Of a stretch of 64,000 nucleotides of DNA, positions 21,565 through 24,254 are shown piece after piece. Origin of the DNA: Candidatus Aenigmatarchaeota archaeon (lineage in GTDB: Archaea; Aenigmatarchaeota; Aenigmatarchaeia; QMZP01; QMZT01); assembly GCA_043808015.1 (NCBI GenBank), contig JAZDFI010000008.1, positions 13,271-77,270 on the forward strand. The letters run 5' to 3'. A model generated the notes under the pieces. That model did not search any database, was not told the origin of the DNA, and saw only the letters and a list, made by a program, of their open reading frames with translations. The position numbers and the translations under genes are program-made. The stretch's first letter is position 1. Each line of letters starts with the position of its first letter.

Positions 21565-22953
21565 GTGACAGGTATGGACTTCGGTTTCGAGAGCTTCGAT
21601 GCCGGTTTTGCAGGCTTTGACGTGGATGTGGAAGACTTCCATATCAGCAAAAAGAAGAAATACGACAGGATATGGAAGGTTGGTGCTGGCGGCAGCGTGT
21701 GCTCCAAACCTGTCATTGATGGCAATGTAGCTTACTTTGGGTCGCTTGATCATAATGTCTATGCTATTGATTTGAATACCGGCAAAGAGCTTTGGAGATT
21801 AAAGACTAACGGCCTTATACTTGATTCCTCTCCATCTCTGCATGATGGAGTGCTGTTCATCGGAACCTTTGGTCACGACGTTCATGCCATAAACGCTTAT
21901 GAAGGAACCGAGTTGTGGAAATTCCGTGCAGGAGCGGAGATAAACTCCAGACCTCTCGTTTTCAACGATATGGTATTTTTCACGTCAAAGAACGGCTACA
22001 TGTATGCTGTGAGCGAATCCTCTGGAAAGGAGCTGTGGCGCTTCAGGACGGGAGCGGAAATGGTTTCAGCACCGACCCAATACGATGGCAAAATAATAAT
22101 CGGCTCATACGACGGATACCTTTATTGTGTTAATATCGACGGTAAGGAACTCTGGCGCTTCAGAACAGGAGCGGAAATAGAAAATGACGATTATTTTCTC
22201 ATAGATGACGGCATAATATACTTCGGCAGCTTCGACAACAATCTTTATGCCGTGGACATAAAGACAGGCCGTGAAGCATGGCGCTTCAAAACGGGCAAAT
22301 ACGGCAACTGCGGCGTGCCGAGGATGCACAAAAAAGTCATATATTACGGATCGAGGGACGGTATATTCTACGCCATAGACTCCATTACGGGAAAAGAAAC
22401 CTGGCGCTTCAGCACAGGCAAAGAGATAATAGACAAGGGCCCCCTGGTATACAAAAACAAAATCTATTTCGGCGCGGGCGACAACAATGTTTATTGCCTG
22501 AACCTCGAAGGCGAAGAACTCTGGCGCTTCAAGACCAGCGGCGGAGTTTACACGTCTGTAGTTGAGCACAAAGGTACGCTCTACTTCGGCAGCTGGGACT
22601 GCCACCTTTACGCAGTCGATTCAGCTACGGGCAAAGAGGTGTGGCGCTTTGCGACTAGCTCGCTTACGCCAGCGCCGTTGCCGCCTGCATACGAATGCTT
22701 TGAAGTGGAAATCAAAAAAGGCGCTCACATAGAGGACGCGATATCTGAAGAAAAATATTCCAGTAAAAAACACGATCACGTTTCTCTTTCAAACTACCAG
22801 ATAACGAGCGAGTATTCGACTAAGAGCGAATACAAGCAGAAGAGCGATTACGACGCCCATTGGGTAATGTTTGAAGGTATACTAAACGAGGAGGAACTGA
22901 CATGTCTTTCGAATTTGGTGGATTTGAATCAGCGGACTTTGATGTCGAGCTAG
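21565..22953 (+). CDS. PQQ-like 8-bladed beta-propeller repeat protein, paralog A
   Basis: About 8 repeats of the ...G(K/T)E(L/V)WRF(R/K)TG... pattern; no obvious signal peptide; acidic/aromatic N-terminus; conserved C-terminal tail SEYKQKSDYDAHWVM. Confidence 0.8.
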   Translation: MTGMDFGFESFDAGFAGFDVDVEDFHISKKKKYDRIWKVGAGGSVCSKPVIDGNVAYFGSLDHNVYAIDLNTGKELWRLKTNGLILDSSPSLHDGVLFIGTFGHDVHAINAYEGTELWKFRAGAEINSRPLVFNDMVFFTSKNGYMYAVSESSGKELWRFRTGAEMVSAPTQYDGKIIIGSYDGYLYCVNIDGKELWRFRTGAEIENDDYFLIDDGIIYFGSFDNNLYAVDIKTGREAWRFKTGKYGNCGVPRMHKKVIYYGSRDGIFYAIDSITGKETWRFSTGKEIIDKGPLVYKNKIYFGAGDNNVYCLNLEGEELWRFKTSGGVYTSVVEHKGTLYFGSWDCHLYAVDSATGKEVWRFATSSLTPAPLPPAYECFEVEIKKGAHIEDAISEEKYSSKKHDHVSLSNYQITSEYSTKSEYKQKSDYDAHWVMFEGILNEEELTCLSNLVDLNQRTLMSS

Positions 22954-24254
22954 AAGATATCGAAATTAAAAGAACGAAAAAATTCGACAGGATGTGGGAA
23001 GTCGGCTTCGGCGGCAGCATCAACAACGGAGTAAGGCTTGTTGACGGCATAATATATTTCGGAGCCATGGACAACTACGTTTACGCTGTCGACGCATCGG
23101 ATGGCAAGGAAGTTTGGAAATTCAGGACAGGCGACGGCATATGCGAAAGCACGCCGGAAGTCTCGGGAGGCATAGTGTACGTCGGTTCTTTTGATCATAA
23201 TCTTTACGCGATTGACGCCAAGACTGGTACGATGAAATGGGCTTTCAGAACAGGCGGCAAGGTAGACGCATCCCCCATCGAAAGCGAAGGGATTGTTTAT
23301 GCCGGCTCAAAGGACTGTTATATCTATGCCGTTGACTGCAAGTCTGGCAAAGAAGTATGGCGCTTCAGAACAGGAGACGAGATAGCCTCGGCTCCGACAC
23401 TCCATGACAACGTGATTTTCAACGGCTCTTTTGACAAGAATTTCTACTGCCTGAACAAGAAAACGGGCAAGGAGATTTGGCGCTTCCGCACTGGTGGGGA
23501 AATACACAACGACAGGCCTTTCCTCGTGGTTAATGAAAGAGTATTTTTCACGTCATTTGACAGCCATCTTTACTGCGCTGATGTTAAAACGGGTAAAGAA
23601 ATATGGCGTTTTAAGACCGGACGATACGGCAACGCTGGTAGTCCTGCGTATAACAACGGAGTCATATATCACGGTTCCAGAGACGGCATATTCTATGCAA
23701 TTTCACATGAAGGCAGAGAGTTGTGGAGATTCAGAACAGAGAGAGATGAACCTATAGACGTAATACCACTGATATACAAAAACAGGATATATTTCGGAGC
23801 AGGTGACGGTAACTTTTATTGTCTTGATCTGAACGGAAAGGAAATGTGGAGATTCAGAGCTTCACACAACATTTACACTTCTGCGGCCGTGTTTAACAAT
23901 GTGATATTTTTCAATTCGATGGATTGCCACTTATATGCGCTGGACGCGGACACCGGAGAGGAAGTGTGGAGATTCGCCACGTCGACGATGACAATCTCAC
24001 CATTACCGCCGCCTTATGCATCCTTCAAACTCGAGGTCCGTAAATCACAAATATCTGAACATTTTGATATCAAAGAAAAATACAAGAAAAGCAAAGAAGA
24101 AACAGTGTCGCTGTCCGATTACCACATCAAAAGCGATTATGCAACAACTAGCGAATACAAGCAAAAAAGCGACTACGACACGCATTGGGTCATGCTCGAT
24201 GAAGTGTTTGCCGACGAACCTGAAATTTTCTGCGGAATTCTGAAGAAAGCCTGA
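22902..24254 (+). CDS. PQQ-like 8-bladed beta-propeller repeat protein, paralog B; start overlaps the 3' end of paralog A by 52 nt
   Basis: Same repeat architecture; its N-terminus (FEFGGFESADFDVELEDIEIKRTKKFDRMWEV) matches paralog A's N-terminus, which supports the overlapping start. Confidence 0.8.
   Translation: MSFEFGGFESADFDVELEDIEIKRTKKFDRMWEVGFGGSINNGVRLVDGIIYFGAMDNYVYAVDASDGKEVWKFRTGDGICESTPEVSGGIVYVGSFDHNLYAIDAKTGTMKWAFRTGGKVDASPIESEGIVYAGSKDCYIYAVDCKSGKEVWRFRTGDEIASAPTLHDNVIFNGSFDKNFYCLNKKTGKEIWRFRTGGEIHNDRPFLVVNERVFFTSFDSHLYCADVKTGKEIWRFKTGRYGNAGSPAYNNGVIYHGSRDGIFYAISHEGRELWRFRTERDEPIDVIPLIYKNRIYFGAGDGNFYCLDLNGKEMWRFRASHNIYTSAAVFNNVIFFNSMDCHLYALDADTGEEVWRFATSTMTISPLPPPYASFKLEVRKSQISEHFDIKEKYKKSKEETVSLSDYHIKSDYATTSEYKQKSDYDTHWVMLDEVFADEPEIFCGILKKA

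Follow-up and report, generated by a model that had tools for sequence, protein, structure and literature searches.

Why should two neighbouring archaeal propeller proteins that carry no export signal have kept the same short peptides at both ends? The question is raised by a pair of overlapping genes, A and B, that we examined at positions 21565-24254 (+ strand) of a 64,000-nt stretch of Candidatus Aenigmatarchaeota DNA, referred to here as the window. A description made from the letters alone (the sequence-only reading) had picked out the pair as tandem PQQ beta-propeller paralogues without signal peptides and with shared termini. The answer that we favour, and that we hold tentatively, is that A and B are cytoplasmic binding modules, each built of a variable head and a constant handle, in which the handle docks every paralogue to one common partner. 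The two genes are placed as follows.

21574-22953, + strand: gene A, 459 aa from the ATG at 21574; the open reading frame opens at a GTG at 21565.
22902-24254, + strand: gene B, 450 aa, the final array gene ahead of aRF1.

Both proteins are propellers. They share 51% identity over 447 aa (E = 2e-160), and they match Pfam PQQ_2 with 246 and 176 bits (cut-off, 27.6; E = 1e-52 to 4e-73), Beta-prop_ACSF4 with 234 and 221 bits (cut-off, 133) and also PQQ. AlphaFold2, supplied with family alignments, folded A and B alike into eight four-stranded blades (32 strands, each blade ~40 residues) with a predicted local distance difference test score (pLDDT) above 94; the propeller spans ~330 aa with short loops, and the overall pLDDT is 86 for A and 85 for B. 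The tandem paralogy and the eight blades proposed from the letters were therefore confirmed. The blades are not, however, the near-identical repeats that had been claimed, as those of B share 28-50% identity, with a mean of 38%.

Outside the blades, AlphaFold2 placed one strand near each end: residues 19-24 in B and 21-26 in A on the N-terminal side, and residues 375-380 in B and 376-381 in A on the C-terminal side. We read these strands as pairing into a two-stranded N/C clasp. Segments with pLDDT below 50 comprise residues 1-17, 383-434 and 443-450 of B and residues 9-14, 398-421 and 423-458 of A. Since the low values lie beyond both clasp strands, the conserved peptides would exit the propeller side by side, and they are probably disordered linear motifs.

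Neither protein has a leader. The N-termini read MDFGFESF.. in A and MSFEFGGF.. in B, without a hydrophobic segment; the net charge of the first 22 residues is -7 (A) and -8 (B), and the maximum 19-residue Kyte-Doolittle hydropathy in the two proteins is 0.96 and 0.93. Could a start further upstream reveal an ordinary signal peptide? In-frame stops lie closely upstream of each gene (TAA 21535-21537 for A and TGA 22872-22874 for B), and no hidden start exists for either one. We take ATG 21574, rather than GTG 21565, to be the most likely start of gene A, because a Shine-Dalgarno-like GGTGA lies upstream of it and because MDFGFESF.. fits the N-terminus of the family. The C-terminal residues are polar or encoded in a gene overlap and show neither a membrane anchor nor a sorting signal. 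Hence, from the upstream stops, the low hydropathy and the acidic N-terminus, we conclude that A and B are without a Sec or Tat leader or a membrane anchor, as the sequence-only reading had said of the signal peptide. Each protein has a pI of ~5.3, 7-8 Cys and 0-1 N-glycosylation sequons. The Cys content and the scarcity of sequons weakly favour the cytoplasm, where we would place the propellers.

What, then, are the shared ends? Four segments define them in the pair.

21574-21678, + strand: N-terminal module of A (MDFGFESFDAGFAGFDVDVEDFHISKKKKYDRIWK), an acidic Phe-rich low-confidence peptide and then clasp strand 21-26, from an N-terminal hidden Markov model on 193 open reading frames.
22902-23000, + strand: N-terminal module of B (MSFEFGGFESADFDVELEDIEIKRTKKFDRMWE), from the family alignment and AlphaFold2.
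22780-22875, + strand: Tyr-hexad tail of A (VSLSNYQITSEYSTKSEYKQKSDYDAHWVMFE).
24105-24200, + strand: Tyr-hexad tail of B (VSLSDYHIKSDYATTSEYKQKSDYDTHWVMLD).

Among homologues the N-terminus reads MDFGFEGFE..DFDVELED.EVKK.KKFDR.W, and the C-terminal region reads ..EKYKKKKEETVSLSDYH..SEYS..SEYKQKSDYD..FVMFE... In full, the tail motif is VSLS[DN]Y-x3-S[DE]Y-x3-SEYKQKSDYD-xx-[WF]V[MI][FL][ED], with a Tyr every six residues. Y394, Y407, Y413, Y419 and Y425 of B are invariant or nearly so, the final four standing six residues apart in S[DE]Y hexads. A SEYKQKSDYDxHWVM tail had been described as the common C-terminus of A and B. It is indeed common to both, but it is a piece of this longer Tyr-hexad motif and is not terminal: in A, B and most members a further 20-30 residues separate the motif from the true C-terminus. 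The resemblance of both ends, the F/D/E-rich N-termini and the tails, goes far beyond chance and is kept family-wide.

To what level does the conservation belong? Column entropy across 90 full-length members was lowest in the Tyr tail (B 403-432; 0.93 bits), followed by residues 1-18 (1.21 bits), against a propeller mean of 1.78 bits. Within the propeller it rose from the outer strand D (1.21 bits) through the D-A loops (2.05) and the A-B loops (2.23) to the inner strand A (2.86), so that the channel-lining inner strand is the most variable part of each blade. Across paralogues, constant termini (0.93-1.21 bits) are thus combined with a variable putative ligand face (strand A, 2.86 bits). Over 82 genes, conservation of the tail residues is 84-100% and the Tyr are invariant, while every synonymous codon is used, including both TCN and AGY for serine. 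Free synonymous variation beneath constant residues shows that selection acts at the protein level. The terminal motifs are kept in orthologues and in hundreds of paralogues, above the level of the propeller; 16 isolated single-copy members also retain the N-terminal module and both motifs. These data support the proposal that the termini are a functional interaction or targeting module.

Two further features may belong with the constant parts. The loops of blade 6 carry family-specific, near-invariant K/R241-Y242-G243-N244 and R260-D261-G262 (B numbering; B has R241), and these residues could conceivably form a constant site. In a short-tail subfamily of ~420 aa the tail differs yet stays Tyr-periodic (Y-x5-Y), with other flanking residues. 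Short-tail genes at L032, L035, L037, L042, L043, L045, L053 and L063, and proteins P0084 and P0120, end one residue past the last Tyr (..SEYK or ..GEYR, then stop). The penultimate Tyr recalls HbYX proteasome-docking tails, but Glu occupies the hydrophobic position.

How widespread is the family? With B as the query, a homologue search brought up over 4,500 propeller proteins, and among the ~120 best almost every one is ~450 aa long and covers 96-100% of B. They already stand in databases under generic names, such as 'PQQ-binding-like beta-propeller repeat protein [Candidatus Aenigmarchaeota]' or 'BamB', and their fold is ordinary; the exact sequences of A and B were not found in the sequence collection in which we looked them up. 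A scan of one genome per GTDB species gave 527 relatives, and all locus counts below rest on the best 71 loci from these, 1.03 Mb in total. Their labels are Aenigmatarchaeota/Aenigmarchaeota or 'uncultured archaeon', bar one metagenome-assembled genome labelled Micrarchaeota. We counted 213 family open reading frames. All three parts (N-terminal module, propeller and C-tail) are present in 166 of them; the others are fragments at contig ends, pseudogenes with frameshifts or members of the ~420-aa short-tail subfamily. The genes form co-oriented tandem arrays of up to 11, and several metagenome-assembled genomes of ~1 Mb hold at least 8-14 copies each, a lower bound.

One array site recurs, FEN1/DUF498, then the array, then aRF1/PAP2/L3. 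It is found in a 1.1-Mb contig and in ~16 of the 71 loci, and the window shows the same site, where array size is 2 in the window, 5 in L001, at least 9 in L002 and ~10 in L004. Such variable length at one site fits a flexible repertoire better than a complex of fixed stoichiometry. Within the window, tblastn and motif scans in all six frames found only A and B. Some family copies elsewhere are split into 2-3 open reading frames and appear to be frameshifted pseudogenes (L050 9633-11362; L051/L072 8672-10052; L061 1294-2558). They sit in two Aenigmatarchaeota assemblies of ~1 Mb, the CP070801 chromosome and the 1.1-Mb contig CAVSBQ010000002, and include the positional orthologue of gene A; arrays thus look to decay as well as recombine.

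Do the terminal peptides occur on anything else? Across the 1.03 Mb of related loci, neither the tail nor the N-terminus was found on a non-propeller open reading frame. A tail-only profile run against 1.84 billion cluster representatives gave 48 matches, all of them family members or fragments bar five. Four of these, the long P0148, P0153 and P0156 together with P0161, are repeat proteins and were rejected as false positives. The fifth, P0138 (301 aa), is the one protein in which the Tyr tail is joined to something other than a propeller: the first ~200 residues resemble a periplasmic sugar-binding protein and are followed by ..FKLEVKK..SEYRQKSDYG... It is probably a chimeric assembly. Confinement of the tail to one family makes a general targeting signal unlikely. 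Of the sequence-only proposal of a targeting or interaction module, then, protein-level conservation upholds the module, while general targeting loses ground.

Pfam at E ≤10 returned nothing for the tail or the N-terminal peptide, and a PDB profile search of the termini gave chance matches alone (ubiquitin 'LSDYNIQ' and a pilin). Neither terminus was recognised by NCBIfam or PADLOC. The SSB C-tail, the ribosomal-stalk tail, FG repeats, the SHP box and FFAT presumably do not correspond to the N-peptide either, none fitting its consensus or orientation.

The arrangement of the two genes has its own consequences for the termini. The signals and the overlap are these.

21527-21536, + strand: TATA-box-like element TTTATAAATA, read in the sequence 38-47 nt upstream of the ATG of A.
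22888-22896, + strand: Shine-Dalgarno site of B, GAGGAGGAA, inside the coding sequence of A (codons ..EEE..).
22902-22953, + strand: A/B overlap, 52 nt; the A frame reads ..CLSNLVDLNQRTLMSS and stops, a passenger reading of the conserved N-terminus of B.

The element TTTATAAATA is a candidate promoter of the A-B unit. The site GAGGAGGAA ends 5 nt before ATG 22902, with a GGAGG core at 22890-22894, 7 nt before the ATG. The sequence-only reading had placed the start of B 52 nt inside A, and this is exact. Among 124 tandem pairs the overlap is exactly 52 nt in 54 and 34-73 nt in 103, and the frame offset is always identical. Every internal array gene has its own Shine-Dalgarno site inside the preceding gene, and the consensus of the 30 nt before the downstream ATG is a purine-rich GGAGG...GAGG stretch. 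Short-tail genes lack the overlap, with gaps of 10-34 nt in L047.

This overlap creates an apparent third motif. Upstream genes end in the class ..EE[LI]W[TI]SDSKDLKPQTLM followed by a stop, and we considered the ending ..LWTSDSKDLKPQTLM as a further conserved C-terminal element. It proved to be a frame artefact. The EE is the GGAGG Shine-Dalgarno of the next gene read out of frame, the Trp is its start codon (xxA TGG), and the rest of the upstream tail is its N-terminus MDFGFEGFE.SDFDV/E read out of frame, which yields the stop TAG; the window instance is GAGGAGGAActgacATG at 22888-22904. Which of the two frames is selected? In the downstream frame, third codon positions hold most of the variation of the overlap (1.25 bits versus 0.50 and 0.24), which indicates that the downstream N-terminus is selected and that the upstream tail is a mere passenger. 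The overlap stays open because D, F, G, E and S codons cannot make stops in that frame. We conclude from the codon pattern that the residues past ...FVMFE in upstream genes are an overlap passenger and not a module. The final residues are ..TLMSS in A and ..ILKKA in B; genes that stand last in an array have tails of other classes, as B does with ..EPEIFCGILKKA.

Gene A itself records how such an array changes. The closest relative, L001, has five genes (G1-G5) at the site, and B is orthologous to G5 (about 85% protein and about 88% nucleotide identity). By BLAST, the counterpart of A is G1, at 82% nucleotide identity, and from B onward the window matches L001 from G5 onward at 88%.

22826-22856: approximate recombination breakpoint, in EYKQKSDYD-coding DNA, from a three-way alignment and the BLAST layout.

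Left of the breakpoint the window follows L001 G1, and right of it L001 G4/G5; gene A therefore has the body of G1 and the tail and junction of G4. The L001 paralogues cross-align at only 62-67% nucleotide identity. Such wide divergence marks them as old paralogues, and hence it was the window lineage that deleted three genes. The alignments show this loss as a crossover inside the most conserved coding segment.

How might these proteins work? The A-B pair would be the remnant of a tandem array of non-enzymatic PQQ/BamB-type eight-bladed propellers. The head, variable at the inner strand and adjacent loops, would bind diverse ligands. The handle would consist of the first ~18 residues (acidic and Phe/Gly-rich) and of the C-terminal Lys-rich stretch with the four six-spaced Tyr that follow it; both peptides, exiting the N/C beta-clasp, would act as short linear docking motifs for the common partner. 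The co-oriented, overlapping genes with their own internal Shine-Dalgarno sites are probably translationally coupled, and recombination within the conserved DNA of tail and junction lets the repertoire grow and shrink.

Several observations weigh against this account. Most characterised relatives are extracytoplasmic (BamB, YxaL, PQQ dehydrogenases and archaeal 'cell surface proteins'), so that the cytoplasmic placement leans solely on the missing leader, the Cys and the few sequons. Gene neighbourhoods at the 71 loci offer no partner candidate, the housekeeping block (KaiC-like/FEN1/KsgA/Na-H exchanger/DUF498/aRF1/PAP2/rpL3) being all that recurs there. Low pLDDT is not proof of disorder, inner-strand variability could reflect relaxed constraint rather than diversified binding, and co-expression from overlapping genes would suit a hetero-oligomer equally well.

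Perhaps, then, the propellers bind one another? The termini would in that case be head-to-tail connectors, the C-tail of one paralogue binding the N-peptide or the blade-6 K/R-Y-G-N, S-R-D-G patch of another, and the products would be mixed propeller chains or lattices, perhaps formed co-translationally in operon order as ribosomes terminate ~50 nt inside the next gene. Both termini occur on this family alone, as mutual partners would, and the co-oriented genes with overlaps of 34-73 nt in 103 of 124 pairs suit such assembly, as do the near-invariant blade-6 loops (R241/Y242/G243/N244 and R260/D261/G262); the four Tyr, ~20 Å apart, could address successive near-equivalent blades. However, AlphaFold2 gave no confident contact of N-peptide, Tyr tail and propeller within a chain, although pairing in trans would leave the same co-evolution signal as pairing in cis. 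Both terminal motifs persist in members that stand alone as single copies, one locus has arrays of anywhere from 2 to at least 10 genes, and both termini are net acidic. We consider self-assembly unlikely. Unconventional export, somewhat less probable still, would make the acidic/aromatic N-terminus, the Tyr tail or both a dedicated signal for leaderless secretion or host delivery and the propellers surface or host-directed adhesins of DPANN episymbionts. Classical signal peptides do occur in relatives outside the family (P0030 and P0062, for example), the nearest propellers that have been characterised are extracytoplasmic, and host-interaction proteins typically show lineage-specific expansion together with variable surfaces; DPANN surface propellers have been discussed before (PMC5498576, PMC10266531). 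Yet none of several hundred members has a hydrophobic segment, the N-terminus carries a charge of -7/-8, no transporter recurs beside the arrays at the 71 loci, and each protein has 7-8 Cys and nearly no sequons. Secretion signals, moreover, are usually common to unrelated cargo, whereas these termini stay on one family. A bolder version of both ideas, in which the predicted disordered termini are an unknown DPANN-specific recognition code for leaderless export or host delivery of a repertoire of propeller adhesins, or else for co-translational assembly, strikes us as a doubtful prospect. In its assembly form the ~52-nt overlap could bring the C-tail of protein n, once complete, into contact with the emerging N-peptide of protein n+1, and gene order would dictate the subunit order of a heteropolymer.

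Might the tails instead be regulatory? The S[DE]Y hexads would then be Ser/Tyr phosphorylation sites, a degron or a proteasome/unfoldase-docking element rather than a scaffold tether. Ser, Asp/Glu and Tyr do recur in a predicted disordered segment, a KaiC-like ATPase of the autokinase type is the commonest neighbour (17 of 71 loci), and short-tail members end just past their last Tyr, as HbYX tails do. But the KaiC-like gene is part of the housekeeping block and does not lie beside arrays elsewhere, the hydrophobic HbYX position is Glu, the Tyr repeats lie 20-30 residues from the C-terminus, and the equally conserved N-terminus is left unexplained. Regulatory tails therefore seem improbable to us. 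Could the terminal conservation arise from nucleic acid alone, through the overlap, ribosome-binding sites and recombination or gene conversion, with no protein function? This does hold for the last ~17-25 residues of upstream genes, and tail DNA has served as a crossover site, leaving A chimeric. For the core motifs, however, it is largely refuted: synonymous codons of the Tyr tail vary beneath amino acids conserved at 84-100%, overlap variation falls at downstream third positions (1.25 versus 0.50 and 0.24 bits), and genes first in an array (gene A) or in single copy retain the N-terminus with no upstream gene overlapping it. We give a purely nucleic-acid origin almost no credence.

Two other roles for the genes were examined and rejected. 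PADLOC found no anti-phage defence match for A, B or their neighbours, and against a viral origin IMG/VR yielded only two distant propellers at 28% identity, on very large contigs.

The family of variable heads on constant handles would matter for several reasons. Aenigmatarchaeota are uncultured, have ~1 Mb genomes and offer nearly no experimentally characterised proteins. At 8-14 copies or more in several of them, roughly 1-2% of such a genome, the family is probably central to their biology, and its most strongly selected parts match no known domain or solved structure. Judged by our searches, it is found almost only in Aenigmatarchaeota, and its terminal modules, inherited overlap and array dynamics appear undescribed; full-text literature searching, including the main Aenigmarchaeota genomics paper, found no description of it. 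The family supplies natural examples of a propeller repertoire that varies while its peptide handle stays constant, of a long inherited gene overlap whose upstream-frame reading mimics a 'conserved C-terminus', and of array expansion and contraction by recombination within the most conserved coding segment. To learn what the termini bind would give a way into the cell biology of DPANN archaea.

The surroundings of the pair are those of an archaeal chromosome. The window holds archaeal 16S and 23S rRNA genes, with aRF1 and FEN1 near the pair, and the gene order is Na+/H+ exchanger with a TrkA domain, KsgA, KaiC-like ATPase, FEN1, GDT1-family transporter, DUF498, A, B, aRF1, PAP2 and ribosomal protein L3. 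The AT-rich DNA noted upstream of the pair is real (GC 0.37-0.38): an island of ~1 kb (20483-21507, GC ~0.37) lies between DUF498 and gene A. Its 294-aa open reading frame (20538-21422, - strand) has a LAGLIDADG_3 domain (E = 3e-9), and the island looks like a free-standing homing-endonuclease-type insertion. L001 has only ~100 bp at the syntenic site and lacks the island, which rules out a link between it and the gene pair. A GDT1/UPF0016-family divalent cation/proton antiporter gene (19448-20008, - strand) lies between FEN1 and DUF498; the corresponding segment (window 19428-19985) is absent from L001, which has only ~10 bp there, and this gene too is unrelated to the pair. Conversely, L001 15729-16671, opposite window 28606-28654, holds ~940 bp extra between collinear blocks of 88-89% identity.

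A second low-GC island (~40800-42300, GC 0.38) contains small open reading frames alone, encoding a 114-aa winged-helix-like protein, a 95-aa membrane protein and a 118-aa ATP-cone-like protein, and has a 24-nt tandem repeat (42191-42269). This island, too, may be of mobile or foreign origin. The rRNA operon occupies 46401-51828 (16S, 46401-47839; 23S, 48693-51828). Its 23S match of 3136 nt, against a model of 2987 positions, may hold an insertion, and no tRNA was detected within the 16S-23S spacer of ~850 nt. An Rfam tRNA of 109 nt (54658-54766), unreported by ARAGORN, is probably an intron-containing archaeal tRNA.

How do A and B compare with known systems? Solved structures match the propeller alone (Cake, Scone, Bagel, Tako, 3HXJ, YxaL, BamB and tetrathionate hydrolase). 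For residues ~48-360 the closest are 3HXJ (1e-52) and Cake10 (2.5e-135), which leave the terminal modules uncovered. 3HXJ, with a chain named 'Pyrrolo-quinoline quinone', is presumably a structural-genomics PQQ-like propeller from Methanococcus maripaludis; Cake, Scone, Bagel and Tako are artificial designer proteins. BamB (YfgL) and the PQQ_2 proteins, which act as protein-binding scaffolds, share with A and B an eight-bladed, non-catalytic propeller of ~330 residues and the same blade motif (Foldseek E ~1e-19 to 1e-20; TM-scores of 0.7-0.8 normalised to the target). BamB itself, an outer-membrane lipoprotein of bacteria, bears a lipobox signal and belongs to the BAM complex. A and B, by contrast, are archaeal and leaderless, and at both ends they carry extra conserved peptides that are missing from every BamB. 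An acidic, leaderless N-terminus in an archaeal genome does not fit a lipobox lipoprotein of an outer membrane with BamA, and the BamB models were not reached (TIGR03300, 173 and 184 bits versus 285; NF008351, 119 versus 423). Nor were the PQQ dehydrogenase models (TIGR03075, 108 and 128 versus 480; TIGR03074, 58 and 65 versus 833), and all NCBIfam matches for A and B fell below cut-offs. Catalytic quinoprotein propellers are periplasmic, ~550-600 aa long and have long insertions; here there are ~330 aa, short loops and no signal peptide.

Sec- or Tat-secreted archaeal surface propellers do not fit A and B, given the upstream stops, the hydropathy maxima of 0.96/0.93 and the polar or overlap-encoded C-termini. 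Proteasome docking through HbYX does not fit either, the Tyr repeats of A and B being internal and the short-tail subfamily ending ..EY[KR]. YxaL of Bacillus and the PQQ-propeller sensors of AfsK/PknD-type Ser/Thr kinases belong to the same blade family (7DXN, 1.8e-42; NF053615 AfsK domain matches). Those propellers are secreted or extracytoplasmic, and the kinase sensors are fused to kinases, whereas A and B are leaderless and have no enzymatic or transmembrane domain. Eukaryotic substrate receptors of the F-box-WD40/Kelch, DCAF and SOCS-box types, which form large paralogous families, come closest to the design that we propose, and Fbw7 is among the structural matches. A and B have no F-box, SOCS-box or known adaptor domain, and no ubiquitin-like machinery is implicated. 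The likeness is hence one of design and not of homology: in both, a short constant element would dock a variable propeller onto a common machine, the constant parts of A and B being two predicted disordered peptides.

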